The translations under genes were made by a program, and so were the position numbers. A stretch of 64,000 bases of DNA from an uncultured Thermotogae bacterium. GTDB taxonomy: Bacteria > Bipolaricaulota > Bipolaricaulia > CAYUCE01. Within the stretch, counting starts at the first letter, position 1; the number at the start of each line of letters is the position of its first letter. The notes below the pieces were generated by a model. It was not told the origin of the DNA and did not search any database. It saw only the letters and a program-made list of their open reading frames with translations. Below are positions 35,406 through 59,361 of the stretch, piece by piece. The stretch spans positions 358-64,357 of the forward strand of contig CAYUCE010000002.1 in NCBI GenBank assembly GCA_964443275.1, given 5' to 3'.

Positions 35406-36722
35406 GTGACTAACTTTATTAACTTAAAAAACGAACTTCCCGGAAAGAAGTCACAAGAAATCGCCCAAAAGAGAAAGATGTATGTGACTCAAGCCGTGGG
35501 CAAACAATCGCTTTGCCCCGGTTATATTGCCAGTGGTGATGGCGCTTTAGTTACTGACGTAGACGGAAATACCTTTATCGATTTTACCGGGGGTTGGGGA
35601 TGTTTAATTGTGGGTCATACTCCAACCAGAGTAGTGAAAGCAATTAAAGAACAAGCTGAGAAATATCTTCACACGGACTTTTCAGCAGTTCCGTACGAAC
35701 CCTACGTCGAGCTTGCCGAGCGATTGGTTAAGCTGGCCCCCGGCGATTGGCCCAAAAAGGCGGCCTTTTTTAATAGTGGAGCAGAAGCGGTGGAAAATGC
35801 GGTAAAGATATCACGTGCTTACACCGGAAGGAAAGCAGTGATAGTATTCGAAAATGCCTTTCACGGCCGGACACTTCTAACTATGACCATGACCCACAAA
35901 GCCAAACCCTATAAGTACAAGTTTGGCCCATTTGCCTCCGATATCTACCGGCTACCCTATCCCAACTCCTATCGTTCTGATGGAAAATCAAAAGACTGGG
36001 AGCGGGAACTTACTTCTCTGGTCAATCCTGAAGAGGTGGCTTGCTTAGTAATAGAGCCCATACAAGGTGAAGGGGGGTTTTTAGTTCCTCCGGATGGATT
36101 CTTAAAACAATTACGGGATCTGTGTGACAAGTACGGTATCTTGTTTGTAGCAGATGAGATTCAAACCGGTATGGGCAGGACGGGGAAGATGTTTGCTATC
36201 CAACATTGGGACATCGAACCGGACATTATTACAGTAGCCAAATCGCTGGCTGCCGGGCTTCCTCTATCCGGGGTAATCGCCAAAAAAGAAGTCATCGATT
36301 CTCTTATCGAGGGAGCCATCGGAGGTACATATTGTGGAAATCCACTTGCCTGCCGGGCAGCCATCGAGGTCTTAAACCTTATCCAGGAAGAAAATCTCCT
36401 TTCACGAGCCGAAAAAATCGGCAAACAAATAAAGGAAAGATTTACTTCGATGAAGGAAAAGTACGAAATCATAGGCCATATACGGGGTATAGGAGCCATG
36501 GTGGGAATGGAATTTGTTAAAGATAGAGATACTAAGGAGCCTGCTTCAGAGGCTACTTCCCAGATCGTTAAAGATTGTGTTTCACATGGACTGCTTGTTC
36601 CCAGCTGCGGAATTTACAATAACGTAATCAGGTTGCTAGTGCCTTTGGTAATTACCGACTCCCAGCTAAGCGAGGGCCGTGACGTATTGGAAGATGCAGT
36701 CGCTAGAGTTGCAGGAATCTAA
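35406..36722 (+). CDS. Class-III PLP-dependent aminotransferase (GabT/ornithine/putrescine aminotransferase-like), copy A
   Basis: 438 aa. The Lys-PLP region is DEIQTGMGRTGKMFA. The central about 1.1 kb is near-identical to copy B at 48598..49917. Confidence 0.85.
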   Translation: MTNFINLKNELPGKKSQEIAQKRKMYVTQAVGKQSLCPGYIASGDGALVTDVDGNTFIDFTGGWGCLIVGHTPTRVVKAIKEQAEKYLHTDFSAVPYEPYVELAERLVKLAPGDWPKKAAFFNSGAEAVENAVKISRAYTGRKAVIVFENAFHGRTLLTMTMTHKAKPYKYKFGPFASDIYRLPYPNSYRSDGKSKDWERELTSLVNPEEVACLVIEPIQGEGGFLVPPDGFLKQLRDLCDKYGILFVADEIQTGMGRTGKMFAIQHWDIEPDIITVAKSLAAGLPLSGVIAKKEVIDSLIEGAIGGTYCGNPLACRAAIEVLNLIQEENLLSRAEKIGKQIKERFTSMKEKYEIIGHIRGIGAMVGMEFVKDRDTKEPASEATSQIVKDCVSHGLLVPSCGIYNNVIRLLVPLVITDSQLSEGRDVLEDAVARVAGI

Positions 36723-36966: not shown

Positions 36967-37878
36967 CTATTTTCTTCCGGAATCTAAATAACTATCGCCA
37001 TAAAAGATCTGGTGATCTTCCCAGAGCTGCTCCAGCTTCTCCAGATATTGTGTAGAGTCCTCCTTTAGCTTAAGGCTCAATGCTGTCCCGATGGCCCCGA
37101 TAAGACTGATAGGGGCAGTGAATGAATCAATGTACGAGAGAATACGACATTTCCCCAGTAACAAATGATCGGCATGTTCAGCCAGAGGAGAGAATTCACT
37201 ATCGGTGATGACCACTGTTGTTATGTCTTCTCGTTTAGCGGCCTGCAAACATTCCACAATCTCTCGGGAGTATCTGGGGAAGTTTAACCCGATAACCAAG
37301 CTGTTCTCCGACAAGCGGGCCAGTTCGCTATAGAAGACCATTGGGGTTGAGGTTATTGCTTTTACCCCATCTCGGACCCAGCGAAGAACTGTCTCCAAGT
37401 ATTCAGCTAAAGGGGAGAAGATCGTAAAAGCAACAATAACAATCTTATCGGCAGCCAGGATCTTTTCGATGACTTCTCCCACTTCTTCAAGGTCCAGGTT
37501 TTGCAAAGTATCTTCAAGGTTGTGAAGGTCAAGCAACAGGGTCTTCACTACCGGATTGGCCTTGTCTTTCACGTGGGGATGGTATTTCTTTAACCGGTTA
37601 ACGGTGGTGAGCTTGCGTTGTACCAGATCCTGAATCTTCTCCTGCAGTTCAGGATATCCTTCAAAACCACAATCCTTGGCAAATCGCACTACAGTGGATT
37701 CACTGACCTCTGTTATCTCTGCCAATTCAGCCGCAGTCATAAAGGCAACCTGGAGAAGATTGTCCAGTATAAACTTAGCGATTCTCCTCTTCTTACCCGA
37801 TAGCTCTCCCCTTTTTTCTCTTATGAGCGAATCTATATCTTTCAACTTTCCACCTTCCCTATTTAGTTGCAAGTTCAA
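36967..37878 (-). CDS. RpiR/MurR-family transcriptional regulator (HTH_6 plus SIS domain)
   Basis: ITEVSESTVVRFAKDCGFEGYPELQ is the HTH, followed by a SIS phosphosugar-binding fold. It is divergent from the ABC substrate-binding protein gene. Confidence 0.85.
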   Translation of the reverse strand: MNLQLNREGGKLKDIDSLIREKRGELSGKKRRIAKFILDNLLQVAFMTAAELAEITEVSESTVVRFAKDCGFEGYPELQEKIQDLVQRKLTTVNRLKKYHPHVKDKANPVVKTLLLDLHNLEDTLQNLDLEEVGEVIEKILAADKIVIVAFTIFSPLAEYLETVLRWVRDGVKAITSTPMVFYSELARLSENSLVIGLNFPRYSREIVECLQAAKREDITTVVITDSEFSPLAEHADHLLLGKCRILSYIDSFTAPISLIGAIGTALSLKLKEDSTQYLEKLEQLWEDHQIFYGDSYLDSGRK

Positions 37879-37970: not shown

Positions 37971-37999
37971 TTGACAGAAAAGTTGAATTATGTTATAAT
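37971..37999 (+). promoter_or_regulatory. Consensus sigma-70-type promoter TTGACA-17 nt-TATAAT driving the substrate-binding protein/permease operon
   Basis: Exact TTGACA at 37971-37976, a 17-nt spacer, and exact TATAAT at 37994-37999. It lies about 175 nt upstream of the ATG at 38176. Confidence 0.45.
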
Positions 38000-38175: not shown

Positions 38176-39750
38176 ATGGCAAAACGTCTAATCACATTTT
38201 TTGTGCTAATTAGTTTACTTGCATTCGCAAATTCTGTTGGTACGCCTCAGTCAGAAAAATATGGCGGAACGGTTCACTTCGGAATTTCCACAACACTTCC
38301 GTCGTTGAACCCCCTTAAAGGAGTAGCACCCTCAACTCGAGGTGGGACTCGGACTATTCTCACAGTTTATCGAGGCTTACTTGGATTTAATTCTGACAGT
38401 GAGTTAGTCCCTGAATTGGCAGAAAGTTACGAAACCTCAGATAATAAAACTTGGGGTTTTCGTCTGCGTGAAAACGCGAAATTTCATAATGGTGAACCGG
38501 TAATAGCCGAAGATGTTAAATTTACATTTGACTGGATTCGTGACCCTGATAATGGTGCTTTTGGCTATCAGTACTTAAAGAGAATTAAAAACACCACAAT
38601 AGTTGATAAGCATACCATAGAAATTGAACTTAAATCTCCAGATGCAACTTTTGCTTCACTGCTAACTCAAGCTTGCGCGGTTATTGTTTCAAAAGACTGG
38701 TGGCAAGATCCCGAAACTAATCCAGACATTGAAATGATGGGTGCAGGACCTTTTAAGTTTGAAGATTTAGTCGAAGGAGTAAAAGTTGTGACCAAGCGAT
38801 TTGACGATTTCTACAAAGAGGGGTTCCCGTACCTAGATAAGATGGTTGTTCACTTCTATCCCGATGAAGAAAGTAGAATTAATGCCTTGCTGGCTGGTGA
38901 TTTGGATATTATAGGTTATCCGCCTTGGAGATACATGAAGAAGATAGATGCTGACCCAAATTATGAATTGGAACTTGCCTCAGGCGTTTTAATGACCGTA
39001 GCTTTCAATCTAACGGTGGAACCTTGGACTAACATAAAAGTTCGAGAGGCCATCAGTTACGCTCTAAAACGCGATGACTACGTAGAAGGTGTTTTCTATG
39101 GCTATGCGGAGCCAATACGGGGCCCTTTGACACCTCCTGACATGAAACAGTGGTATCATGAGGGGCTAGCTGAGTTCTTTGAATACAATCCAGAAAAGGC
39201 AAAGAGACTACTTGCTGAGGCAGGTTATCCTGATGGCTTTAAGACAACAATCTTCTCAAACTATACATATGGGATGTACAAAAGAACCGCAGAAATTCTG
39301 CAAAGACAATTAAAAGAAGTGGGAATTGAAGGGGAACTTGAGCTAGTCGATTGGCCCGAGCAGGTAGAGAGATCCTGGAGCGGTAACTTTACAGGTCTAA
39401 AAGTAATAGGTACACTTTTCTTTTATCCAGATCCTGACTCTTATGTGACCACAATAGGTATTTCTGCAAAGCCTACGTTCGCATCATATGGTATAGAATC
39501 TGGAGATGTCAAAGTTCCGCTAATGAAACAAGCCCTAGAGGAAGCTCGAACTGCCGTAACAACAAAAAAAAGAGACGAATGGTATCGTGCATTCGAAGGA
39601 CTTTTCCTTGCTAAGTTTCTACAGATACCTCTCGTTGGTAGATATGATGGGACTGCTCTGAGTAAACGAGTTCAAAATTACGATCCTCCTTGTGGACAAC
39701 TCACCGGCTTTAGTGCTTTTGCACATGATTATATCTGGCTGGAACATTAA
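38176..39750 (+). CDS. ABC transporter substrate-binding protein, family 5 (peptide/nickel/opine type)
   Basis: Signal peptide, then an SBP_bac_5-like body. Length is 524 aa. Confidence 0.85.
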   Translation: MAKRLITFFVLISLLAFANSVGTPQSEKYGGTVHFGISTTLPSLNPLKGVAPSTRGGTRTILTVYRGLLGFNSDSELVPELAESYETSDNKTWGFRLRENAKFHNGEPVIAEDVKFTFDWIRDPDNGAFGYQYLKRIKNTTIVDKHTIEIELKSPDATFASLLTQACAVIVSKDWWQDPETNPDIEMMGAGPFKFEDLVEGVKVVTKRFDDFYKEGFPYLDKMVVHFYPDEESRINALLAGDLDIIGYPPWRYMKKIDADPNYELELASGVLMTVAFNLTVEPWTNIKVREAISYALKRDDYVEGVFYGYAEPIRGPLTPPDMKQWYHEGLAEFFEYNPEKAKRLLAEAGYPDGFKTTIFSNYTYGMYKRTAEILQRQLKEVGIEGELELVDWPEQVERSWSGNFTGLKVIGTLFFYPDPDSYVTTIGISAKPTFASYGIESGDVKVPLMKQALEEARTAVTTKKRDEWYRAFEGLFLAKFLQIPLVGRYDGTALSKRVQNYDPPCGQLTGFSAFAHDYIWLEH

Positions 39751-39837
39751 CAGGATTTCAAAAGGAAATATGCTTTAACACATGTGTAAACTTTGTACTT
39801 GATATTTTCGGAGCGGAAACTAGAAATAAATACACAT

Positions 39838-39870
39838 ATTCACAGGAGCTTTTCAAAAGCTCCTGTGAAT
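39838..39870. promoter_or_regulatory. Perfect 33-bp palindrome ATTCACAGGAGCTTTT-c-AAAAGCTCCTGTGAAT (intercistronic hairpin or operator)
   Basis: Two 16-nt perfectly complementary arms lie about 90 nt after the substrate-binding protein stop, inside a 430-nt gap before the permease gene. There is no downstream T-run. Confidence 0.35.
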
Positions 39871-40181
39871 ATGTCCTATCGCAAAATTCTTACTAGTGTG
39901 CGAGGCAGACTACTTCCACATTTACACATCGGACCAAAGGTTATTGTAAATACCATCTATACTATGCGGTATTTGACAAGATTACGTTGCCCATTGTTTC
40001 TGTATTCTTTTCTTAAAAGAAATAGATTTAAGAAATGCCAACCTCTGGTATTTTCACCTTTGGAAGGTCCGCTTTCCCAAGAGAAGTTAGCTTTTAAGCC
40101 ACGACTTGTAAGTAAAAAGGAAACCTGCAAAATTCGCTTAAAAATATAGCATTTACATTCGCAAAATGAGGCTGTGAAGCA

Positions 40182-41147
40182 ATGTCGATATATGCATTCA
40201 TAGTTAGACGTTTATTTGTAAGCTTCGGTACAATACTTATCATTACTGTTGTGGTATTTTCCTTTTTACACCTACTTCCTGGTGATCCCGCTCAGATGAT
40301 CCTCGGTGGTGGTACAGAAGGAGGCACTATAAATGAAGAGCAACTACAACGTATCAGACAGGAATTAAATTTAGATAAACCACTGCATATTCAATATTTT
40401 CTCTTTCTAAAAAACGCTCTCCAAGGTAATTTGGGGAAATCCTATTACAACGATCAGCCTGTTTCCAATGTGTTATTAATACGCTTCCAGAGATCATTCG
40501 AATTGGTCATATTGAGTTTTCTACTCGCGGTACCAGTTGGTATATCTCTTGGCGTATTAGCAGGCATACATAGTGGAAGATACCTTAGCACGATTATTGT
40601 TCTACTCTCTGTTTTAGGCATATCTCTTCCTGTTTACGTACTGGGTCCGCTTTTTATAAAAATATTTTCCTTGCAATTAAGTTGGCTGCCAACATCAGGA
40701 TATGTTCTCATAAGTGAGAGTACTGTGAAGCATATACAATCTCTTGTACTTCCGGTAACCACACTGTCTTTGGGCCTAATAGCAATGATTAGTAGAATAC
40801 AGCGATCAAGTCTTTTAGAAGTTCTCCACTCCGAATATATAACCACCGCAAGATCAAAAGGGCTTAATGAAGGGATAGTAATGACCAAACATGCGCTTCG
40901 GAATGCTGTAATCCCCGTTATCTCAATAGGTAGTGTACAATTAGCCCGTTTAGTAGGAGGGACTGTGGTTTTAGAAACCGTTTTTACCTACCCCGGATTA
41001 GGATTGCTACTGAAGGAATCTATTATGAGACGTGATCTACCTGTTATCCTAGGTATTGCACTTCTGGTTGGAATTACTTTTAGCATCATTAACTTACTCG
41101 TTGACTTGGCTTATTGTTTCTTGGATCCCAGGATTAGGTATGATTAA
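40182..41147 (+). CDS. ABC transporter permease (DppB/OppB-like), set 1
   Basis: 321 aa with six TM helices and the EAA-like loop region of the BPD_transp_1 family. Confidence 0.85.
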   Translation: MSIYAFIVRRLFVSFGTILIITVVVFSFLHLLPGDPAQMILGGGTEGGTINEEQLQRIRQELNLDKPLHIQYFLFLKNALQGNLGKSYYNDQPVSNVLLIRFQRSFELVILSFLLAVPVGISLGVLAGIHSGRYLSTIIVLLSVLGISLPVYVLGPLFIKIFSLQLSWLPTSGYVLISESTVKHIQSLVLPVTTLSLGLIAMISRIQRSSLLEVLHSEYITTARSKGLNEGIVMTKHALRNAVIPVISIGSVQLARLVGGTVVLETVFTYPGLGLLLKESIMRRDLPVILGIALLVGITFSIINLLVDLAYCFLDPRIRYD

Positions 41148-41997
41148 TCTTAAACAGGAATTATGCAATAAAATGAAACTTTTACGTGATTTCCGTGTTA
41201 CTATAAGCTCGATAATTATCCTCGCCTTGCTACTGTTATCTCTCTTGGCACCAGTTCTTCCAGTAAGAGATCCCTTTGAGATGAATTTCTCGAATATGTT
41301 AGAGGGACGAAGCAGCAGTTTTTTACTAGGTACAGACGAATACGGTCGTGATTTGTTAAGCAGGATACTATACGGCACAAGAGTAACCCTTTCAGTAGCT
41401 TTTGCAGCTACCACTATTGCGGCAATTCTTGGTTGCTTACTTGGTATATGTTCAGCATATTTTAGAGGATGGTCAGAAACATTCCTTATGCGAATTACAG
41501 AAGTTCTGGTATCATTTCCTCCCGTTTTACTGGCAATGATAGTGGTTGGACTTTGGGGACCGGGGATGAGAAATTTAATTCTAAGTATAGGAGTAATTCA
41601 TTCTCCTATGTTTGCCCGACTGAGCTACGGAGTAACCAAATCAGAGCGAGAGAGAGAGTACGTTAAAGCCAGCAAATCATTGGGAGCATCAAATACTTGG
41701 ATAATTGCTAAAGTGTTGTTACCCAACATCGCAGCACCTATCATTGTGCAATTTGCAGTCAACTTTGCTTGGGCAGCTCTTCTTGCTGGAGGCCTGAGTT
41801 TCCTTGGATTAGGGATCATTCCTCCCCGGCCTTCGCTTGGAAATATTCTTGCAGGTGCTCGCAGTTATATGGCCTTGAACTGGTCATATTTTCTCTGGCC
41901 TGCTGTTGTACTTGGCACTCTAATAACGGCTGTGAATATTTTAAGTGAAGGGTTGCGCGAAGCGCTGGATCCAAAGCAGCGGGGGTCAATTGTCTGA
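41140..41997 (+). CDS. ABC transporter permease (DppC/OppC-like), set 1
   Basis: Track ORF is 41056..41997. The likely start is the ATG at 41140, which overlaps the upstream stop. It has an OppC-type N-terminal domain and TM helices. Confidence 0.8.
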   Translation: MINLKQELCNKMKLLRDFRVTISSIIILALLLLSLLAPVLPVRDPFEMNFSNMLEGRSSSFLLGTDEYGRDLLSRILYGTRVTLSVAFAATTIAAILGCLLGICSAYFRGWSETFLMRITEVLVSFPPVLLAMIVVGLWGPGMRNLILSIGVIHSPMFARLSYGVTKSEREREYVKASKSLGASNTWIIAKVLLPNIAAPIIVQFAVNFAWAALLAGGLSFLGLGIIPPRPSLGNILAGARSYMALNWSYFLWPAVVLGTLITAVNILSEGLREALDPKQRGSIV

Positions 41998-42090
41998 TAA
42001 ATGCATAAAGGTAGATGCGTGGTATTTATAGATGTAGTGGGGAAAGCAGGCGAAGATTAGATATGAACGTAAAGATAAAAGGAGGTAGAC

Positions 42091-42771
42091 ATGCAAAATC
42101 TCAAGGAAAAACGAGGAGATCAAACCTACGAGACATATCAATCGATTTCAGTAGATTACATAAAAGGTGGATATCTTGATGGCACAATCGGCTTTGGAGC
42201 AAAGCCAGCAATTATTGTTATTGATTATCAAAAGGCGTTTACTACTTTTGAAGCGACTCTAGGCACAAGTGACTTAATCCAACAAGGAGTTGAAAATACA
42301 GCCATTCTTCTAAAAGAAGCTAGGAAAAAAGGAGTGCAGATTTTCTTTACCAATGTTGCCTGGAGAGAAGATAGGAAAGATTTTGGGATGTGGAAGGGTA
42401 AAATGACACAATGTCTAAAAGAGGCTACTTTGGGTACTTGGGGCGTAGAAGTAGATGACAGACTAAAAATGGAAGACGGCGATATTTTCTTCTACAAAAA
42501 GTGGCCCTCAGCTTTCCATGGCACGCCTCTCAGCACTTATTTAACCACAAAGGGAATTGATACTTTAATCGTAACTGGCTGCACCACCTCCGGATGTGTT
42601 AGGGGAACAATCTATGATTCTTTCTCTAGTGGTTTTAGAACCATCGTTCCTTATGGCTGCGTAGGTGACATAATTCAATCTGCACATGAGCAAAATCTTG
42701 CAGATATCCATAAGAGATATGCCGATGTTCTCCCATTAGAAAAGGTTATTACCTATATACGTGAGCTTTAG
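42091..42771 (+). CDS. Isochorismatase-family cysteine hydrolase (N-carbamoylsarcosine amidase / RutB-like)
   Basis: Catalytic-triad context IIVIDYQKAF ... LIVTGCTTSGCVRGTIYD. Length is 226 aa. Confidence 0.75.
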   Translation: MQNLKEKRGDQTYETYQSISVDYIKGGYLDGTIGFGAKPAIIVIDYQKAFTTFEATLGTSDLIQQGVENTAILLKEARKKGVQIFFTNVAWREDRKDFGMWKGKMTQCLKEATLGTWGVEVDDRLKMEDGDIFFYKKWPSAFHGTPLSTYLTTKGIDTLIVTGCTTSGCVRGTIYDSFSSGFRTIVPYGCVGDIIQSAHEQNLADIHKRYADVLPLEKVITYIREL

Positions 42772-42957
42772 TAATTTCTAGCAATTTCTCTGTAAAGATG
42801 TTTAAATCATGTCTTTGAATCCATGATTATAGTAAGAATATATAGAAGTTGAGAAGTGAGACAATAAGTTTTCGTAAAGGAAAGTCATGTATGATTATAC
42901 TTTTGCAGAATTTTTGCTTCCAACTGAGAATTTTAAGATCTAGCGAAAGGAATATTT

Positions 42958-44421
42958 ATGTATGGAGAAAGAAACTTCTTATCCTCTGAGCGGCCCTATC
43001 TCCGTGTTCTCTCAGAAAAACAGTTAGAGAATCTCCATTTTGCTTCTCTGCGCGTGCTGGAGAGAACGGGGATGATTTTTAACTCTTCTCAAGCTGTTGA
43101 CCTGCTTCTTTCGGCCGGTGGCCGAAGAGTTGAAGGAAATAGAATTTCGATTCCTTCTCATTTAATTGATAAATCTCTCAAGAGCGCGCCTAAGCAAATA
43201 AGGATTAGTGATCGAGAGGGTGATTCCATGATGCTCCTATCGGGCCACAATGTCTATTACGGTACTGGGTCCGATCTTCCTAGTGTCATTGATCCATATT
43301 CCGGTGAGAAGCGTGCCTCATTAGCAAAAGATGTGGGTAACTTCGCCAGGGTCTGTGACTATTTACCAAACATTGATTTTGTGATGTCTATGGCACTGGC
43401 TTCCGATCACCCTGTGGAAGTAGCCGATTTATATCATTTTTTACAGATGGTTAGCAATACGACGCTGCCCATACTCTTTACTGCTTCTAATCGTGAAAGT
43501 TTAGAATACATTTACCAAATGTGTCTGGCCATAAGGGGTAGCGAACAAGCATTGACAAAAGAGCCCTTTATAATTCACTATGCCGAACCTAGCAGTCCAC
43601 TACAGCATAGTAAAGATGCTGTTGACAAACTTCTTTTCTGCGCGAAGCACGGAATTCCGGTCACTTATCCATCCGGAACTTCTCTCGGAGTTACCGCCCC
43701 AGTCACTATCGCCGGTGCTATGGTTATGGCAAACGCAGAGTTTCTTGGTGGACTCGTTTTAAGTCAACTAACACAGGAAGGGGCTCCCATCATTTACGGT
43801 GGTGGGAATTCAGCGATGGATATGCGCACCATGGCGTATCTCTATGCAGCCCCCGAAAATTGGCTTAATGGAATGATAGTCCGGGAACTATCCTCCTACT
43901 ATAGGTTACCATGTTTTGGGGAAGGTGGCTGCGGTGATGCTAAGACCTTCGACCAACAAGCAAGTAGTGAGGCCACAAGCACATTGTTAGTTACTAGTCT
44001 GATTGGTACAAACCTTATACATGATGTGGGATACATCGAGTCAGGCAAGACAGGTTCCTATGGAATGCTTTTGCTATCTGATGACGTTATTGGACAAATT
44101 AAACGTTTTCTCCGTGGGGTCGAGGTATCGAATGAAACCCTAGCAGTAGAAGTATTAGACAGAGTTGGACCAGGAGGTAATTTTCTCACCGATCAACATA
44201 CTCTAAACCATTTTAAGGATTCAATTTATAATCCAAATTATTTTGATCGCCAAACCTTTAGTCAGTGGGTAAAACAAGGCAAAAAAGCACTTGGTCAAGT
44301 ATTGAACGAGAAAGCTAGATGGATTTTGGAAAATCATGAACCTAAACCTTTACCAGAAGGAGTTAAGCAGAAGATAAATACCATCATTCAAAAAGCCGAG
44401 GAACAAAGGGAAAGAACGTAA
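42958..44421 (+). CDS. MttB-superfamily (trimethylamine/quaternary-amine:corrinoid methyltransferase-like) protein, non-pyrrolysine
   Basis: The N-terminus LSEKQLENLHFASLRVLERTGMIF matches the family start. The core GIPVTYPSGTSLGVTAPVTIAGAMVMANAEFLGGLVLSQLT...YGGGNS...DAK...VSNETLAVEVLDRVGPGGNFL aligns along MttB/MtgB. A Cys/Gly sits at the position of the UAG/Pyl residue of true MttB. No corrinoid protein or RamA-like activase is in the window. Confidence 0.7.
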   Translation: MYGERNFLSSERPYLRVLSEKQLENLHFASLRVLERTGMIFNSSQAVDLLLSAGGRRVEGNRISIPSHLIDKSLKSAPKQIRISDREGDSMMLLSGHNVYYGTGSDLPSVIDPYSGEKRASLAKDVGNFARVCDYLPNIDFVMSMALASDHPVEVADLYHFLQMVSNTTLPILFTASNRESLEYIYQMCLAIRGSEQALTKEPFIIHYAEPSSPLQHSKDAVDKLLFCAKHGIPVTYPSGTSLGVTAPVTIAGAMVMANAEFLGGLVLSQLTQEGAPIIYGGGNSAMDMRTMAYLYAAPENWLNGMIVRELSSYYRLPCFGEGGCGDAKTFDQQASSEATSTLLVTSLIGTNLIHDVGYIESGKTGSYGMLLLSDDVIGQIKRFLRGVEVSNETLAVEVLDRVGPGGNFLTDQHTLNHFKDSIYNPNYFDRQTFSQWVKQGKKALGQVLNEKARWILENHEPKPLPEGVKQKINTIIQKAEEQRERT

Positions 44422-44467
44422 TAACATTCTTGTATGATTTTGTGAACAACTAAAAGGAGGATATAAA

Positions 44468-45451
44468 TTGGAAAATGCTTTTGATTTTGTGAAACTTCAT
44501 GCAGGTTGGGATGAGTGTATATTGATTTTTGGGGAGCAATTGCCCAAAGGTGAAGAGCTTAACATTAGCTTATCTCTATTAAAGAAACCAAGCATTGGTG
44601 GAACGGAGGTTGGAATCCTCTATCCTCCTAACGATTCAGGGGATATCAGGGTTAAGATAGTTGATGCTACCAGCAATAGCTATATACGAATGTGTGGAGG
44701 ACTCACACAATCTTTAGGAAAAGCCATTGTTGAAACCAATATCGGTGAAAAGCTAGGGATAACGATACCTGATGGAACGCAAGAAGTCCTATTAGAAACA
44801 GATGCCGGGCTTATTCCCATTGAAATCGAGGTTCAAAATCACATCACCCGGAAGGTAGTCACTAAAATGGATTCTTACCTTACTGATTGTTATGAACGTG
44901 GAGTTGAGTTGGAAAAACTAGATGGAATGTCCGTGGTAGATGTCGGTATTAATGAGGAAGAAAAGGAGTTTTTGGTTATCGATATTGAAGAGCTATCGAG
45001 ACGGTTCTCTAAAGTTAATTTTTTTAAGAGGGAAGAGGCTGCTCTGAATATCTTAGAAGAGGTTTACCGCAAGTTTCTCAGTTCACGCGAAATGTCTTTG
45101 AAATATTTATATGGTGCCCTATATCAGCTTAAAGAGTCAGGGGCAGAAAAGAGGATTCAAACTGTATTCCGCTTCTTTCCATGGGATTATTCACCAGGGG
45201 ATAATTTGGAGTTCGCTTGCGGTACTGGGACAATAGCCATTGGTATCGCCATGTATGAGCGCGGACAGATAGATTTTTCTGATGGAACTGAAAACTTATT
45301 TTTAACCGTTGGTGGAAAACACCTTCCCTCAGGAACAAGAGCGAAAACTCACTTACAACTGGAGGGTACGAAGCAGGGGATAACAAGTGCCCGATTTAGC
45401 CATGACCGTATTGAAATAGTAGCCAGTGGCAAGATCTACATTACTGCATGA
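44468..45451 (+). CDS. DapF-fold PLP-independent amino-acid racemase/epimerase family protein
   Basis: N-terminal FDFVKLHAGWDECILIF matches DapF FSKMHGLGNDFMVV. Two catalytic-Cys motifs are present: RMCGGLTQS and EFACGTGTIAIGIA. The second matches the SPCGTGTSA motif of proline racemase. Confidence 0.5.
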   Translation: MENAFDFVKLHAGWDECILIFGEQLPKGEELNISLSLLKKPSIGGTEVGILYPPNDSGDIRVKIVDATSNSYIRMCGGLTQSLGKAIVETNIGEKLGITIPDGTQEVLLETDAGLIPIEIEVQNHITRKVVTKMDSYLTDCYERGVELEKLDGMSVVDVGINEEEKEFLVIDIEELSRRFSKVNFFKREEAALNILEEVYRKFLSSREMSLKYLYGALYQLKESGAEKRIQTVFRFFPWDYSPGDNLEFACGTGTIAIGIAMYERGQIDFSDGTENLFLTVGGKHLPSGTRAKTHLQLEGTKQGITSARFSHDRIEIVASGKIYITA

Positions 45452-45577
45452 TTTTTCCCTCTAGACGCTGCTAAGACTGAGTTAGTAGCATGGCTATTAA
45501 CAAATCCGAAATAAATATTAGTAGAAAGAAACGATGCTCAGTAACTGCTAGAGCGATAGCAAAGTGTAGGTGATCAA

Positions 45578-46504
45578 ATGGGGATCACCCAATATTTCAT
45601 AAGACGTTTACTGTTAATCATTCCAGTAATACTGGTGGTTTCAGTAGTTAATTTCTCGATGCTCCATTTGGCCCCAGGTGATCCTGTACGGGTAATGGTT
45701 AACCCTCGAATGGGTGAGGAGGCCATTCAACAAAAACGCAAAGAGTTGGGATTGGACAAACCACTCTTTATTCAATATTTGAACTTTATGAAGAGGATAA
45801 TTACAGGCAACCTGGGACGCTCAATCTACACCAGGGAGCGTATCGAAGCTATGATACTGCGGCGTCTATCAAACACATTAATCTTGGGAATCACTGCTCT
45901 CACTCTGGCTTTTCTTATTGCAATACCTTTTGGTACTTTGGCTGCGAAATACCGTGGAAGGTTACTAGATTACGCTTCTATGTTTGCAGCCCTTGTTGGC
46001 CTTTCTATGCCCCAATTTTGGCTGGGGCTAGTACTAATGCTGGTGTTTGCAATAAAACTTGGGTGGTTCCCAGTGGCTGGTTACGGAGACTTAAGACATC
46101 TTGTGCTTCCCGCTATCACCCTTGCTGCATATTTTACAGGTCTTATGACCCGATTGAACCGTTCTAGCTTGCTGGAAGTGATGGGAAAAGACTACATGTT
46201 TACCGCCCGAGCCAAGGGACTTTCTGAGGTAACTGTGCTTTTCAAACACGGACTGCGTAACTCTTTGACTACCGTAATTTCCTTCTTGGGATTACAGGTT
46301 GGCTGGCTAGTAGGGGGAGCGGTAATGGTGGAATTCGTTTTTAATAGGCCGGGGTTGGGAAGATTGATCGTACAATCCCTTTATCGGCGGGATTATCCGG
46401 TAATACAGATTCTTTTACTTATTCTGGTTACCTCAGTTATATTGGGAAATTTACTAGCCGATCTATGCTATGCAACGGTCAACCCAAAAATTAGATATAA
46501 ATAG
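45578..46504 (+). CDS. ABC transporter permease (DppB/OppB-like), set 2
   Basis: 308 aa paralog of the set 1 permease, with six TM helices. Confidence 0.85.
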   Translation: MGITQYFIRRLLLIIPVILVVSVVNFSMLHLAPGDPVRVMVNPRMGEEAIQQKRKELGLDKPLFIQYLNFMKRIITGNLGRSIYTRERIEAMILRRLSNTLILGITALTLAFLIAIPFGTLAAKYRGRLLDYASMFAALVGLSMPQFWLGLVLMLVFAIKLGWFPVAGYGDLRHLVLPAITLAAYFTGLMTRLNRSSLLEVMGKDYMFTARAKGLSEVTVLFKHGLRNSLTTVISFLGLQVGWLVGGAVMVEFVFNRPGLGRLIVQSLYRRDYPVIQILLLILVTSVILGNLLADLCYATVNPKIRYK

Positions 46505-46515
46505 GGTCAGTTGCC

Positions 46516-47334
46516 ATGCGAGTACTTAAACATAAGCAGATAATTTTTGGAGGCGGGGTAATACTGGTCTTTTGCACGATAGCGATACTCGCTCCTTATA
46601 TTATCCCTTATCACTATTGGGAGCAGGATTTAATGGAGTCCCTACACGAGCCTAGTGGAGAGCACTTCTTTGGTACGGATAATTTCGGGCGTGATGTCTT
46701 TAGCCGAGTTGTTTATGGAACACGAATATCACTTATTTCCGCGCTGGGAGCTGCAGGAGTTGCTTCTATAGTGGGATTAACTCTGGGGTTGTTGGCCGGT
46801 TATTTAGGAGGAGCGGTGGATCGAGTTGTCCAAACGGCAATTGACGTATCCTGGTCGTTCCCCACAGTACTATTGGCTATTTTGATTGCATCAGTAGCAA
46901 GCCCGGGATTGAGCTCCACTATTATCGCCATTGCAGCCGTGTATTGGGCACAATATGCGCGGGTAATCCGGGGAGAGGTTTTATCAGTAAGGGAGGAAGA
47001 GTACGTACACGCCGCCAAGAGTATCGGCTGTACGGAGGTCAGGGTAATGGCTCGCCATGTGTTTCCCAACGTGGTCCCCCCGATGATAGTGATGATAAGT
47101 ATCACCATGGGATACGCTATATTACTAGAAGCAATGCTAAGTTTTTTAGGTGTCGGAGTTCAACCTCCCACTCCTAGTTGGGGAATCGTTCTCTCCGAAG
47201 GGCGTGATTTTCTGACCAGAGCCCCCTGGATAACCCTCTTTCCAGGCATGATCATTTCCCTAGCCGTTCTAGCTTTCAATTTCCTTGGTGATGGACTGAG
47301 GGATTACCTCGATCCATATATGAAGCGGATATGA
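46516..47334 (+). CDS. ABC transporter permease (DppC/OppC-like), set 2
   Basis: 272 aa with an OppC-type TM arrangement. Confidence 0.85.
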   Translation: MRVLKHKQIIFGGGVILVFCTIAILAPYIIPYHYWEQDLMESLHEPSGEHFFGTDNFGRDVFSRVVYGTRISLISALGAAGVASIVGLTLGLLAGYLGGAVDRVVQTAIDVSWSFPTVLLAILIASVASPGLSSTIIAIAAVYWAQYARVIRGEVLSVREEEYVHAAKSIGCTEVRVMARHVFPNVVPPMIVMISITMGYAILLEAMLSFLGVGVQPPTPSWGIVLSEGRDFLTRAPWITLFPGMIISLAVLAFNFLGDGLRDYLDPYMKRI

Positions 47335-47571: not shown

Positions 47572-48504
47572 ATGAAAAACAGAATGAAAGGTAGAGATTT
47601 TTTAACTTTAATGGATTACACTAAAGAGGAGATAACCTGGATTTTAGAGTGCGCAGATGAATTAAAACGTTCTTGGGCTAAGGGTGAACCTCATGAATAT
47701 CTTAGGGGAAAAACTGTTGCCGCTCTGTTTGAGAAGCAGTCCACCAGAACCCGTACCTCCTTTCAAGCTGGAATGGCTCATTTAGGAGGTCAAAGCTTCT
47801 ATATGAGACCTGATGAGCTTCAGCTAGGACGTGGGGAGCCCATTAAGGACACAGCTAGAGTAATTGATCGCTACTGTGATGCCCTGTTTATTAGAACTTA
47901 TGGACAGGAGATAGCGGAGGAGTTTGCAGAGTACATGAAAAATCCGGTTATCAACGCCTTGACCAATTTAACTCATCCTTGCCAGGGGCTTGCGGATCTT
48001 TTAACTATTAAGGAAAAAAAGGGAGGATTTAAAGATCTAAAGTTAGCTTACACGGGCGCTGTCTCTAACGTATGTCATAGCCTCATGATAGGAGGAACCA
48101 TTATGGGGATAGATGTTTACGTGGCTAGACCAGAAGGTTATGATCCTGACCCCCGCCCGTTAAAATTTGCTGAAGAGAAGGCCAAAGGCTCGGGGAAAAA
48201 TCTTATTGTTACAGATGATCTAAACGAAGCAGTAAACAACGCGGATATAGTTTATGCCGATGCTTGGCATGCTATGGGAACTAAGGATAAGGAGCAAAAA
48301 GAAGAGAATTTTTTGCCTTTTCAGATAAATGAAGAAGTGTTAGCCCTGGCAAAAGATGACTTTATCTTTATGCATTGCCTGCCTGCATATAGAGGGAAAG
48401 AGGTAACTGAGATGGTAATCGAAGGTCCGCATTCAGTGGTTTGGGATCAAGCGGAAAATAGGATGCACACGGAGAAGGCGATATTAGCGTTGCTTGTTCA
48501 ATAA
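47572..48504 (+). CDS. Carbamoyltransferase of the OTC/ATC family (ornithine or putrescine carbamoyltransferase, catabolic context)
   Basis: STRTR motif (FEKQSTRTRTSFQAG) for carbamoyl-phosphate binding, plus HPCQ and HCLP motifs. Length is 310 aa. Confidence 0.85.
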   Translation: MKNRMKGRDFLTLMDYTKEEITWILECADELKRSWAKGEPHEYLRGKTVAALFEKQSTRTRTSFQAGMAHLGGQSFYMRPDELQLGRGEPIKDTARVIDRYCDALFIRTYGQEIAEEFAEYMKNPVINALTNLTHPCQGLADLLTIKEKKGGFKDLKLAYTGAVSNVCHSLMIGGTIMGIDVYVARPEGYDPDPRPLKFAEEKAKGSGKNLIVTDDLNEAVNNADIVYADAWHAMGTKDKEQKEENFLPFQINEEVLALAKDDFIFMHCLPAYRGKEVTEMVIEGPHSVVWDQAENRMHTEKAILALLVQ

Positions 48505-48597: not shown

Positions 48598-49917
48598 ATG
48601 TCTACTCGACCTAGTTTTATCTCTTTTAGCACCTGTTCCCCTGGCCCAAAGTCAAAGGAAATTGCCAAGAAGAGAGAGAGGTTTGTAACTAATGCATTGG
48701 GCAGGCAATCTCTTTGTCCCGGTTATATTGCCAGTGGTGATGGCGCTTTGGTCACCGACATAGACGGAAATACCTTTATCGATTTTACCGGGGGTTGGGG
48801 ATGTTTAATCGTCGGTCATACTCCAACCAGAGTAGTGAAAGCAATTAAAGAACAAGCTGAGAAATATCTTCACACGGACTTTTCAGCAGTTCCGTACGAA
48901 CCCTACGTCGAGCTTGCCGAGCGATTGGTTAAGCTGGCCCCCGGCGATTGGCCCAAAAAGGCGGCCTTTTTTAATAGTGGAGCAGAAGCGGTGGAAAATG
49001 CGGTAAAGATATCACGTGCTTACACCGGAAGGAAAGCAGTGATAGTATTCGAAAATGCCTTTCACGGCCGGACACTTCTAACTATGACCATGACCCACAA
49101 AGCCAAACCCTATAAGTACAAGTTTGGCCCATTTGCCTCCGATATCTACCGGCTACCCTATCCCAACTCCTATCGTTCTGATGGAAAATCAAAAGACTGG
49201 GAGCGGGAACTTACTTCTCTGGTCAATCCTGAAGAGGTGGCTTGCTTAGTAATAGAGCCCATACAAGGTGAAGGGGGGTTTTTAGTTCCTCCGGATGGAT
49301 TCTTAAAACAATTACGGGATCTGTGTGACAAGTACGGTATCTTGTTTGTAGCAGATGAGATTCAAACCGGTATGGGCAGGACGGGGAAGATGTTTGCTAT
49401 CCAACATTGGGACATCGAACCGGACATTATTACAGTAGCCAAATCGCTGGCTGCCGGGCTTCCTCTATCCGGGGTAATCGCCAAAAAAGAAGTCATCGAT
49501 TCTCTTATCGAGGGAGCCATCGGAGGTACATATTGTGGAAATCCACTTGCCTGCCGGGCAGCCATCGAGGTCTTAAACCTTATCCAGGAAGAAAATCTCC
49601 TTTCACGAGCCGAAAAAATCGGCAAACAAATAAAGGAAAGATTTACTTCGATGAAGGAAAAGTACGAAATCATAGGCCATATACGGGGTATAGGAGCCAT
49701 GGTGGGAATGGAATTTGTTAAAGATAGAGATACTAAGGAGCCTGCTTCAGAGGCTACTTCCCAGATCGTTAAAGATTGTGTTTCACATGGACTGCTTGTT
49801 CCCAGCTGCGGAATTTACAATAACGTAATCAGATTACTGGTGCCTTTGGTAATTACCGACTCCCAGCTAAGCGAGGGCTTGGACGTGTTAGAGGAGGCGA
49901 TCTCCAGTATTGCTTAA
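48598..49917 (+). CDS. Class-III PLP-dependent aminotransferase, copy B
   Basis: 439 aa. Identical to copy A between QSLCPGYIASGDG and VITDSQLSEG. The termini are divergent. Confidence 0.85.
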   Translation: MSTRPSFISFSTCSPGPKSKEIAKKRERFVTNALGRQSLCPGYIASGDGALVTDIDGNTFIDFTGGWGCLIVGHTPTRVVKAIKEQAEKYLHTDFSAVPYEPYVELAERLVKLAPGDWPKKAAFFNSGAEAVENAVKISRAYTGRKAVIVFENAFHGRTLLTMTMTHKAKPYKYKFGPFASDIYRLPYPNSYRSDGKSKDWERELTSLVNPEEVACLVIEPIQGEGGFLVPPDGFLKQLRDLCDKYGILFVADEIQTGMGRTGKMFAIQHWDIEPDIITVAKSLAAGLPLSGVIAKKEVIDSLIEGAIGGTYCGNPLACRAAIEVLNLIQEENLLSRAEKIGKQIKERFTSMKEKYEIIGHIRGIGAMVGMEFVKDRDTKEPASEATSQIVKDCVSHGLLVPSCGIYNNVIRLLVPLVITDSQLSEGLDVLEEAISSIA

Positions 49918-50037
49918 CTCAGCACCAAACGTAGAAGTCTCCGGTTGGGCACAGAGGCCCAACCATATGACCCTATAGGTACGACCAAACGTAGGGAATG
50001 GCCTCTGTGCCATTCCGAAACCGCGCTAGTAACTACT

Positions 50038-50997
50038 ATGGCAAATAAAAATAAGGCTCAAGATAGGATAGTGATAGCTGTAGGAGGAAATGCCATCCTT
50101 AAGCCCGATCAACCGTGGTCGGCTAAAAGGCAACTGGACAATATAAAGACTACCTGCAAGCAACTGGGAGAGATAATCATAAAGGATGGATACCAACCAG
50201 TCCTCACCTACGGAAACGGCCCCCAGGTAGGCAACATCCTTCTTCAAAACGAAATTGCCAAACAGAAAGTTTCGCCGATGCCTCTGGATATTTGCGGAGC
50301 CCAGAGCCAGGGGCTTTTGGGTTATCTGCTAAGTAAGGAACTAAGAGGTGTTTTGGAAGAAAACGGCTTGCGAGATTTTCAAGTGATCTCGGTGATAACC
50401 CAAACTTTGGTAAGCTCAGATGATCCCGCCTTCACCAATCCCACCAAACCTATTGGTCCTTTCTACTCCCGAAAGGAAGCTGAAAAGCTAAAAAAAGAGA
50501 GAGGTTATCAAATTACCCAAGATGCTAACCGCGGTTGGCGTCGGGTGGTCCCCTCCCCCGATCCCATAACAATTGTGGAAAGTCCGGTGATAAAGCATCT
50601 GGTGGATAAAAAAGTCATAGTCATTGCTTCCGGTGGAGGAGGTGTACCGGTTACCAAAGAAGATGGGCAACTTATAGGTAAAGAAGCAGTTATAGATAAA
50701 GACCTGGCTGCCTGTAAGTTAGCTTGTGACATCAAAGCCAGAACCCTGCTTATTTTAACCGATGTCCAGCAGGTGATGCTCGATTACGGCACCAGCAAGG
50801 CGAGGGGAATCGAGCGGATGAACCTAGAGGAAGCAAGAAAATATCTGGATGAGGGCCACTTCGCCGCAGGCAGCATGAAACCCAAAGTAAAAGCCTGTAT
50901 TAAATTCGTTGAAAATGGCGGTCAAAAAGCGATAATTACTTCTTTGGATAAAGCCATACAAGGACTTTCCGGAAAAGCTGGTACCACTATTTATTAA
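50038..50997 (+). CDS. arcC: Carbamate kinase
   Basis: Likely start is MANKNKAQDRIVIAVGGNAIL at 50038; the track ORF begins at 49945. Carbamate-kinase/amino-acid-kinase fold, 319 aa. Confidence 0.8.
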   Translation: MANKNKAQDRIVIAVGGNAILKPDQPWSAKRQLDNIKTTCKQLGEIIIKDGYQPVLTYGNGPQVGNILLQNEIAKQKVSPMPLDICGAQSQGLLGYLLSKELRGVLEENGLRDFQVISVITQTLVSSDDPAFTNPTKPIGPFYSRKEAEKLKKERGYQITQDANRGWRRVVPSPDPITIVESPVIKHLVDKKVIVIASGGGGVPVTKEDGQLIGKEAVIDKDLAACKLACDIKARTLLILTDVQQVMLDYGTSKARGIERMNLEEARKYLDEGHFAAGSMKPKVKACIKFVENGGQKAIITSLDKAIQGLSGKAGTTIY

Positions 50998-58943: not shown

Positions 58944-58956
58944 GTTTGGGGGGATT

Positions 58957-59361
58957 ATGGTTGTCCCAAGACGAAAGAGGTTAAATAGAAAACAAAGGTT
59001 ACAAGCTGCAAAGAAATGGATACCAACTTATAACGGTAAGAATTTAGTAAGAGGGTATAGAAAATGGTTTGGAGTGGATTTTATATGTGCGATGACCGAA
59101 TTAGAAATGTTGGGTTATGAGATTGATCCAAAATATAAAGGACAGATTTTAAAGCAGGAAGAAGCCAGAAGAAAAGCTGCTATAGAAAGAAATCAGCGTA
59201 AAGAAGAGAGATTTAATGACAAAGTACCTTGGCAAGATGAGAATTTTTATTTTATAGCGGGATATACATCTGGTGGAGTTCCATATGGTATTACATGGGA
59301 GGAGTATGAAAAAGAGTATAAGGAGACTGATGAAGGATTTTATGTTGAAGAAGATGAATGA
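58957..59361 (+). CDS. Hypothetical protein (basic N-terminus, acidic C-terminus)
   Basis: Track ORF is 58915..59361. The likely start is MVVPRRKRLN. The region is AT-rich with atypical codon usage. Confidence 0.3.
   Translation: MVVPRRKRLNRKQRLQAAKKWIPTYNGKNLVRGYRKWFGVDFICAMTELEMLGYEIDPKYKGQILKQEEARRKAAIERNQRKEERFNDKVPWQDENFYFIAGYTSGGVPYGITWEEYEKEYKETDEGFYVEEDE

Follow-up and report, generated by a model that had tools for sequence, protein, structure and literature searches.

Introduction

Pyrrolysine-free homologues of the trimethylamine methyltransferase MttB number in the thousands, and substrates are known for a handful of them, all of which are acidic quaternary amines bound via a conserved arginine. 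In the glycine betaine:corrinoid methyltransferase MtgB of Desulfitobacterium hafniense (DSY3156; PDB entries 2qne and 9yce) the ligand is held by Tyr97, Phe356, Arg312 and His348. Tyr97 and Phe356 constitute an aromatic pair which binds the quaternary nitrogen by cation-pi interactions, and Arg312, which is kept in every member of known function, forms a salt bridge to the acidic group of the substrate (PMC13080624). The methyl acceptor of all characterised members of the superfamily is a corrinoid (PMC8604678, PMC13080624). In Eubacterium limosum, the genome of which harbours 42 non-pyrrolysine MttB homologues (PMC12155760), the genes of MtpB, MtcB and MtyB do not share a cluster with that of MtqC or with those of MtqA/RamQ (PMC8604678). 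Besides its one mtgC gene, Ruegeria pomeroyi possesses several genes of PF06253; the published text implies that they are not co-located with it, unlike the situation in other marine bacteria (PMC12478193). Here, we analyse a gene of this superfamily at positions 42958 to 44421 of a 64,000-nucleotide stretch, in the following referred to as the window, of contig CAYUCE010000002.1 from an uncultured Thermotogae bacterium (GTDB lineage Bipolaricaulota; assembly GCA_964443275.1).

We assign a probability of roughly 0.6 to the reading that its product is the substrate:corrinoid methyltransferase (MT1) of a corrinoid-dependent pathway which, as part of a catabolic operon, acts on an N-methylated substrate of the amino-acid type, while the corrinoid protein, the methyl-corrinoid:tetrahydrofolate methyltransferase (MT2) and the reductive activase are encoded in trans. 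The features which carry this reading are:

42958..44421, + strand: MttB-superfamily methyltransferase (MT1), non-pyrrolysine, of the "S-F-C-H-G" clade (PF06253, E 4.9e-90; pocket residues S105/F320/C325/H355/G363)
43930..43932, + strand: TGC codon of Cys325, counterpart of the pyrrolysine of Methanosarcina barkeri MttB (alignment with 7xcl; codon read directly)
44468..45451, + strand: partner gene, encoding a 327-aa cofactor-independent two-Cys racemase/epimerase-fold protein from a rare family related to proline racemase and DapF

Family membership and substrate pocket

The gene is an intact open reading frame (ORF) which coincides exactly with positions 42958 to 44421 and encodes 487 amino acids. 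Residues 8-482 of its product match positions 24-497 of the 500 positions of the PF06253 MTTB profile (302.4 bits at a cut-off of 25). Homology extends over the whole chain both to M. barkeri MttB, the best PDB match (7xcl; E 4.9e-65, query residues 15-482; 31% identity), and to D. hafniense MtgB (2qne, E 1.3e-63, query residues 10-480; 9yce, about 1e-63; 27% identity). The segment YVAGSXSDAK of M. barkeri MttB, in which X is Pyl334, is aligned to FGEGGCGDAK in the window protein, where Cys325 is followed by Gly326; the same match of Pyl334 with Cys325 is obtained in a MAFFT alignment with 120 homologues. No in-frame TAG occurs between 42958 and 44421. As the ORF is continuous, free of in-frame TAG and covers the whole profile, pyrrolysine read-through or a split gene can be ruled out. 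The score for TIGR02369, the NCBIfam equivalog of true pyrrolysine-dependent MttB, amounts to 425.6 bits and remains below the cut-off of 525. Hence, the original prediction, made by a model which had seen only the DNA letters and their ORFs, was accurate in describing a full-length member of the superfamily with Cys/Gly at the pyrrolysine position which is not, by the pyrrolysine criterion, a trimethylamine methyltransferase. Judged by its sequence, the protein is placed within the MttB superfamily, outside both the pyrrolysine-MttB equivalog and the Arg312-bearing quaternary-amine group.

A conspicuous deviation from MtgB is observed within the predicted substrate pocket, which we compared across the 120 closest homologues (45-100% identity). 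The position of Tyr97 is occupied by Ser or Thr (Ser105 in the window protein) and that of Arg312 by Phe or Trp in all 120 sequences (Phe320), while His is found at the position of His348 without exception (His355). Phe356 is replaced by Gly within the clade (Gly363), and the pyrrolysine position is taken by Cys in 96 of the 120 homologues and by Val, Thr, Phe or Ala in the remainder. Thus, three of the four betaine-binding residues, the inspection of which the original prediction had proposed, are exchanged and only the His is kept. On the basis of these residues, we rejected an MtgB-like glycine betaine function. Since the signature differs from that of both reference enzymes and Arg312 is missing, the window protein appears to stand outside all characterised non-pyrrolysine groups, the comparison with MtpB, MtcB, MtyB and MthB resting on the statement on Arg312 in PMC13080624. 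We assign it, from the alignment, to a large uncharacterised clade with the pocket signature S-F-C-H-G. Williams et al. had noted a clade, described as "more closely related to MttB", which is uncharacterised and the methyl donor of which is unknown (PMC9324843).

With MtgB, the window protein shares the superfamily, an alignment over the full length, the lack of pyrrolysine and the pocket His, and it would be expected to methylate, like MtgB, a corrinoid protein in its Co(I) form. In contrast to MtgB, it has no corrinoid protein or MT2 adjoining it and is paired with an epimerase-fold protein. To M. barkeri MttB (7xcl, 7xcn), it is linked by the best structural-sequence match and by the Gly at the position of Phe356, but it carries Cys325 in place of Pyl334, has no UAG codon and has neither mttC nor a methylamine permease nearby.

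Corrinoid genes in the window and beside related genes

Pfam scans of the 64-kb window, which took in all non-overlapped ORFs of at least 110 amino acids and left out about ten short ORFs nested inside larger genes, yielded no B12-binding corrinoid protein, no pterin-binding or URO-D-type MT2 and no RamA-like activase. Neither a search of the six reading frames of the window with hidden Markov models (HMMs) of corrinoid proteins and MT2s, built from only three to four sequences of related loci, nor a DxHxxG...SxL...GG regular expression for a corrinoid gene produced a match. None of these three approaches thus revealed a hidden corrinoid gene within the window. Because the window spans 64,000 of the 64,518 bases of the contig, hardly any room is left for a corrinoid protein and an activase just outside of it. 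The observation behind the original prediction, which had reported no partner gene within 15 kb, thus extends to the entire window.

The absence of these genes means little since, as E. limosum and R. pomeroyi illustrate, adjacency is not the norm, and an orphan non-pyrrolysine MttB gene is ordinary. The original prediction was therefore right to call the gene a non-pyrrolysine member without nearby partners, and its verdict that the substrate is unknown stands (see below), but we do not follow it in concluding from the missing neighbours that the methyl acceptor is in doubt: partner genes are dispersed in E. limosum and R. pomeroyi, no more than 64.5 kb of the genome are visible and relatives of the gene usually lie next to corrinoid genes. 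The dispersed layout of E. limosum is most likely, by analogy, the genomic model for the window gene. There, as presumably here, non-pyrrolysine MT1 genes (MtpB, MtcB, MtyB, MthB) are found apart from the MtqC, MtqA and RamQ which they share, and many MT1 paralogues occur per genome. Unlike the window protein, the characterised MT1s of E. limosum keep Arg312 and accept acidic quaternary amines, and no epimerase partner has been reported for them.

A corrinoid-protein gene is present in at least 33 of the 80 clade loci from metagenomes, many of the contigs being short. When only loci flanked by 5 kb or more on each side are considered, a corrinoid gene is found within 5 kb in 10 of 17 clade loci and in 9 of 10 loci which have the exact S-F-C-H-G motif and are not paired with the partner gene. 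MT2 genes, either pterin-binding or of the URO-D/MtaA type, are located near clade members as well. Most informative are the closest relatives. In L008, genes for a substrate-binding protein, permeases and a molybdopterin oxidoreductase are followed by a corrinoid protein (PF02607 + PF02310), a non-pyrrolysine MtmB-family protein, MttB, the partner and a Pterin_bind protein. The order corrinoid protein, MtmB-like protein, MttB, partner and pterin-binding MT2 recurs in L089. MttB and partner of L008 and L089 are 54% and 43-44% identical to those of the window. L007 comprises MttB, the partner and a homologue of the pterin-binding protein of L008 (assigned by common cluster and HMM match, not by Pfam scan). 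In L032, TctCBA genes precede MttB, the partner, an unassigned gene, CoA-transferase subunits, a Pfam-confirmed corrinoid protein and a member of the L008 pterin-type cluster. Finally, L087 shows the order DapF, MttB, a second MttB, corrinoid protein and MT2. That orthologues sit in such complete systems is the strongest argument for regarding the window protein as an ordinary MT1 with partners encoded in trans.

Some peculiarities of these loci deserve mention. The MtmB-family ORF between corrinoid protein and MttB orthologue is continuous, hence non-pyrrolysine, in L008 (6825-8210) and L089 (at about 1857); that of L008 matches PF05369 with an E value of 3.4e-91. The combination of MtmB-like protein and MttB in L008 and L089 suggests that demethylation proceeds stepwise through members of two distinct MT1 families (compare PMC13044021). 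Directly beyond the partner gene, a second, divergent MttB paralogue is present in L001 (12850-14382, - strand) and L003 (12713-13767); it is 31-40% identical to the window MttB and has no counterpart in the window. Within 5 kb of other clade members we observed urocanase genes (four loci; 15596-17713 in L152) and genes of HyuA-type hydantoinases/oxoprolinases together with an adjoining cluster of unannotated ORFs (five loci; 8334-11654 in L146), which hints at further substrate classes. GntR regulators, HyuA-type hydantoinases and Opp/Dpp components are recurrent neighbours of the clade.

The two-cysteine partner protein

The partner gene starts 46 nt downstream of the MttB gene and is preceded by a good to strong ribosome-binding site (AAAGGAGG). 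Its product obtains 25.3 bits with Pfam Pro_racemase (PF05544), which is below the gathering score of 27, and matches no NCBIfam model. Two cysteines, Cys76 ("MCGG") and Cys251 ("ACGTGT"), one in each domain, are aligned to the motifs of proline racemase and are invariant in 61 relatives. The AlphaFold2 model of the protein (predicted local distance difference test 94.4, predicted TM-score 0.93) is matched by Foldseek with a probability of 1.0, an E value of 1e-16 and a TM-score of about 0.65 to 4k7g, 6r76, 1w61 and 4lb0. The fold matches comprise 3-hydroxyproline dehydratase, proline racemase, 4-hydroxyproline epimerase, DapF, PhzF, HisR and O-ureidoserine racemase, with sequence identities of 13-17%. 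According to the model, the partner has the two-domain pseudo-symmetric fold of proline racemase and DapF including the pair of catalytic cysteines. While it shares the fold and both Cys motifs with proline racemase, 4-hydroxyproline epimerase, 3-hydroxyproline dehydratase and DapF, it differs from them by its low identity, its sub-threshold Pfam score, its "MCGG" instead of "MCGH" and its membership in a small, discrete family, for which 157 matches at E <= 1e-3 and 72 at E <= 1e-30 were retrieved among 1.84 billion representatives. None of the sources gives a functional name for any member of this family.

MttB is directly followed by the partner gene in 8 of the 13 members of the subclade of the window protein, as delimited in a neighbour-joining distance tree of 118 MttB copies without support values. 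Apart from the window, the pair is found in the Spirochaetota metagenome-assembled genome (MAG) represented by L001/L009 (GCA_964424795.1 for L001; 69%/61% identity), in L003-L005 (77%/66%), in L086 and L088, in the Bathyarchaeia MAG L007 and in Bipolaricaulota (L008, L089). In L087, a ninth member of the subclade, the partner is replaced by a canonical diaminopimelate (DAP) epimerase (PF01678, E 1.7e-65) directly upstream of MttB. Hence, a two-Cys epimerase of the proline-racemase/DapF fold seems to have been recruited beside MttB at least twice. The DAP epimerase gene of L087 (8821-9720) overlaps the start of the MttB orthologue, and an Orn/DAP/Arg decarboxylase as well as an RpiR regulator are encoded upstream of it.

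The partner does not always travel with MttB, as most of its 79 genome loci are devoid of MttB. In most of these loci the upstream neighbour encodes a saccharopine-dehydrogenase-like, an Amidohydro_3 or a DDAH/ADI-like protein, often accompanied by Opp/Dpp or Tct transporters. The partner is best seen as a racemase or epimerase of amino acids or their derivatives which serves several catabolic routes. Commonest among the neighbours in L007-L085 are saccharopine-dehydrogenase-like genes (17 loci, in 8 of them directly upstream). Furthermore, two DapF-like genes stand right after the partner-family gene of L081, and the partner-family genes of L010, L014 and L076 have ornithine-carbamoyltransferase-like genes in their vicinity.

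The surrounding gene cluster

The following further features were assigned between 35 and 51 kb of the window:

35406..36722, + strand: 4-aminobutyrate (GABA)-type class-III aminotransferase, copy a (PF00202; TIGR00700, 523.7 bits at a cut-off of 506.65)
36967..37878, - strand: divergent RpiR/SIS-family regulator (HTH_6 + SIS)
38176..39750, + strand: Opp/Dpp-type (family 5) substrate-binding protein (PF00496, E 3e-88; below every NCBIfam equivalog cut-off)
40182..41997, + strand: first permease pair of an ATP-binding cassette (ABC) transporter, listed as 40182-41147 and 41056-41997 (BPD_transp_1)
42091..42771, + strand: isochorismatase-family amidohydrolase, N-carbamoylsarcosine amidohydrolase-like (PF00857)
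45578..47334, + strand: second ABC permease pair, OppB/OppC-like, 45578-46504 and 46516-47334 (BPD_transp_1, OppC_N)
47572..48504, + strand: ornithine carbamoyltransferase (TIGR00658, 393 bits versus a cut-off of 281)
48598..49917, + strand: GABA-type class-III aminotransferase, copy b (TIGR00700, 524.1 bits)
49945..50997, + strand: carbamate kinase (TIGR00746, 403 bits versus a cut-off of 358)

In its account of the neighbourhood, the original prediction correctly noted the lack of a corrinoid partner but missed the epimerase, the N-carbamoylsarcosine-amidase-like gene, the transporter and the aminotransferases. The best PDB matches of the amidohydrolase are N-carbamoylsarcosine amidohydrolases (26st, E 3.6e-40 over the full length; 1nba, E 2.2e-32), and the motif of the nucleophilic Cys, GCTTSGCVRGT, is kept; no NCBIfam equivalog matched. 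In this it resembles the N-carbamoylsarcosine amidohydrolase of the creatinine/N-methylhydantoin pathway, the product of which is an N-methyl amino acid. The other enzymes of that pathway, creatinine deaminase and N-methylhydantoinase, are absent from the window. A homologue is located directly upstream of another clade member in L102. Overall, a small-amide hydrolase precedes MttB in several loci, namely an N-carbamoylsarcosine-amidohydrolase-like enzyme in the window and L102, an ArgE/DapE-like M20 enzyme in L003 and an acetamidase-like one in L001.

The composition of the transporter (38176-47334) is odd as a single substrate-binding protein is combined with permease pairs flanking the enzymes, without an Opp/Dpp ATPase. 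The two listed permeases of the first pair overlap, the true start of the second being probably located after 41147. The second pair is 71-74% identical to permeases of the orthologous locus L003. The glycine betaine methyltransferase cluster of strain DCMF contains, in contrast to this Opp/Dpp-type ABC system, OpuD transporters of the betaine/choline/carnitine family (PMC9768040). Homologues of the regulator flank the orthologous MttB in L087 (48% identity) and L008 (43%). A sigma-70 consensus matching in 12 of 12 positions is present at 37971-37999, before the gene of the substrate-binding protein; from there to 50997, twelve ORFs follow one another on the + strand with short gaps, corresponding to eleven likely genes and the ORF 39793-40149 (118 aa). 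The latter is doubtful as a gene since it is without family match and contains a perfect hairpin with a 19-bp stem (39834-39874). This hairpin, just after the gene of the substrate-binding protein, looks like an intra-operon terminator or stabiliser.

In L001 and L003, the MttB-partner pair has an orthologue of aminotransferase copy b (65-67% identity) upstream of it. The two copies in the window, 95% identical as proteins, have in common a 100% identical DNA stretch of about 1,020 bp (at about 35.6-36.65 kb and 48.8-49.85 kb), while their ends have diverged. Being 13.2 kb apart in direct orientation, they enclose the MttB cluster as a whole. Gene conversion, a recent duplication or a weak point of the assembly may explain this pattern. 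Ornithine carbamoyltransferase and carbamate kinase are absent from the other MttB-partner loci and show a loose association with MttB.

Proposed function

The combined gene content of the cluster is compatible with a route of five steps. The Opp/Dpp-type ABC system would import a compound from which the N-carbamoylsarcosine-amidase-like hydrolase may strip a small carbamoyl or acyl group, thereby exposing an N-methyl amine. MttB would then demethylate the N-methyl compound and hand over the methyl group to a Co(I) corrinoid protein which, like the MT2 and the reductive activase, is presumed to be encoded elsewhere in the genome. Either the substrate or the product could be converted between its D and L forms by the two-Cys epimerase, the gene of which is presumably co-transcribed with that of MttB, and the freed amino group would be taken off by the GABA-type aminotransferase. 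We infer the corrinoid dependence of the window copy, the order of the steps and the substrate class from these genes and from the orthologous loci.

Between specific substrates we could not choose, as sarcosine, N-methylproline or proline betaine, methylated ornithine or lysine, and 4-methylaminobutyrate each provide a partial fit. Sarcosine is compatible with the amidase but not with the epimerase. Proline-type or dibasic amino acids would suit the epimerase, the aminotransferase and neighbours encountered elsewhere (Ldh_2, saccharopine-dehydrogenase-like, DapF and DAP/Orn decarboxylase), but only through indirect links. The literature searched contained nothing relevant on MttB together with proline racemase or on N-methylproline together with corrinoids, and no corrinoid-dependent sarcosine demethylase was found therein. 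Nor does it describe the pocket signature common to the clade, the recurrent coupling with a two-Cys epimerase or the context of small-amide hydrolases.

Several observations weigh against this proposal. In the sequence examined (19 kb on each side of the MttB gene in the case of the window), neither the window nor L001, L003, L086 or L088, the partner-paired loci nearest to it or grouped with it, contains a corrinoid or MT2 gene, so that the corrinoid dependence of this sub-branch rests on homology. Phe320 as well as Ser105 and Gly363, replacing Arg312, Tyr97 and Phe356, may enable a chemistry unlike that of known members. The racemase would be without role if the substrate was achiral as is sarcosine, the type of amidase differs among the loci, and ABC ATPase genes are absent from the cluster, as is the case in L003. 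Moreover, most loci of the partner family are without MttB; one of them, L070, belongs to the Synergistales MAG DFE_SYN, which is reported to lack corrinoid methyltransferases (PMC9768040).

The window protein represents a large and widespread clade without the conserved arginine and the aromatic pair. The context of its subclade, i.e. epimerase, small-amide hydrolase, peptide-type importer and omega-aminotransferase, provides a testable route to a new substrate class, for which N-methyl amino acids and related amines, demethylated in a cobalamin-dependent manner in anoxic settings, are candidates. Pools of creatinine- or hydantoin-like compounds or of modified amino acids are possible sources of such substrates. 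In addition, a rare and unstudied branch of the proline-racemase/DapF fold gains its first functional context. The current model of MttB family function is not overturned.

Alternative interpretations

The five loci without corrinoid gene (the window, L001, L003, L086 and L088) could indicate that, in this sub-branch, MttB and its partner do not require a dedicated corrinoid protein, be it that free cobalamin is used, that the methyl group is transferred directly to an acceptor such as tetrahydrofolate or a thiol, or that the pair fulfils a role in amino-acid catabolism other than methyl transfer. We consider this unlikely. It is favoured by the consistent lack of corrinoid and MT2 genes from these loci as opposed to the nine of ten same-motif relatives with good flanks which are not partner-paired, by the pocket devoid of Arg312, Tyr97 and Phe356, and by the in vitro methylation of free cob(I)alamin by some family members (PMC8604678). 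Yet, no corrinoid-independent enzyme of the MttB family is known, and orthologues sharing 53-55% identity and accompanied by the same or an analogous epimerase reside inside full corrinoid systems. The additional MttB paralogues which accompany the pair in L001 and L003 conform to the pattern of organisms which share one corrinoid protein, and the flanks are short in three of the five corrinoid-less loci. That MttB and the two-Cys partner of this sub-branch form a self-contained unit of N-demethylation and epimerisation without a dedicated corrinoid protein is, in our view, improbable; if true, the MttB fold would here act on N-methyl amino acids, set free by the amidase, independently of a corrinoid protein or in an otherwise mechanistically new way.

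We attach similarly little credence to a transfer of the methyl group to homocysteine, in which a split MetH-like system of corrinoid protein and homocysteine S-methyltransferase would yield methionine, instead of a transfer to tetrahydrofolate for energy or carbon. It is favoured by MtgBCDE, through which marine bacteria couple the demethylation of betaine to the synthesis of methionine (PMC12478193), and by the clade of Williams et al. (Candidatus Electryoneota), nearer to MttB than to MtgB, which clusters with homocysteine methyltransferase, corrinoid protein and activation domain (PMC9324843). By its description, the latter clade differs from the window system in possessing split MetH modules and in having no described epimerase. 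Furthermore, the MT2s beside the partner-paired orthologues in L007, L008, L089 and L032 are of the pterin-binding type, those near other clade members include the URO-D/MtaA type, and the context within the window, comprising transporter, amidase, aminotransferases and carbamate kinase, is catabolic.

It is highly improbable that the enzyme acts on trimethylamine or another simple methylamine with Cys replacing pyrrolysine. The slightly closer relationship to pyrrolysine-dependent MttB than to MtgB, manifest in the identities of 31% versus 27%, in 7xcl as top PDB match and in the TIGR02369 score, would fit such a function. This score is, however, below the cut-off, the position of Cys325 is taken by Val in the partner-paired orthologues with complete corrinoid systems (L007, L008 and L089), which indicates that the Cys is not a conserved catalytic surrogate for pyrrolysine, and, in place of a methylamine permease, the context offers an importer of the Opp/Dpp type along with amidase, amino-acid epimerase and aminotransferase.

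There is only a very slight chance that the isolation of the gene reflects false neighbours created by a mis-join across the 1.02-kb exact repeat in the aminotransferase genes. The repeat on either side of the cluster and the metagenomic origin of the assembly speak for it. The MttB-partner core is, however, confirmed by an independent contig (L006; Logan, SRR7048218), where an unidentified fragment of a gene occupies the place of the amidase, and the pair is also conserved elsewhere, in other organisms. Moreover, a mis-join would still leave about 5 kb upstream and about 4 kb downstream of MttB without corrinoid genes, and the distinct diverged ends of the two copies are as expected for real paralogues undergoing gene conversion.

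Further features of the window

Beyond the cluster, an 888-aa ORF and an overlapping 148-aa ORF following it (56277-59361) are both without Pfam match. The leucyl-tRNA synthetase is 54-57% identical to its counterparts from Bipolaricaulota/Acetothermia and KSB1. A single ORF of 1,188 amino acids (18114-21680) represents an unusual fusion of an LptF/LptG permease domain with an LptA/LptD-N-like domain; together with the LolA-like/FtsX genes located at 51-55 kb, this ORF is indicative of a diderm envelope.

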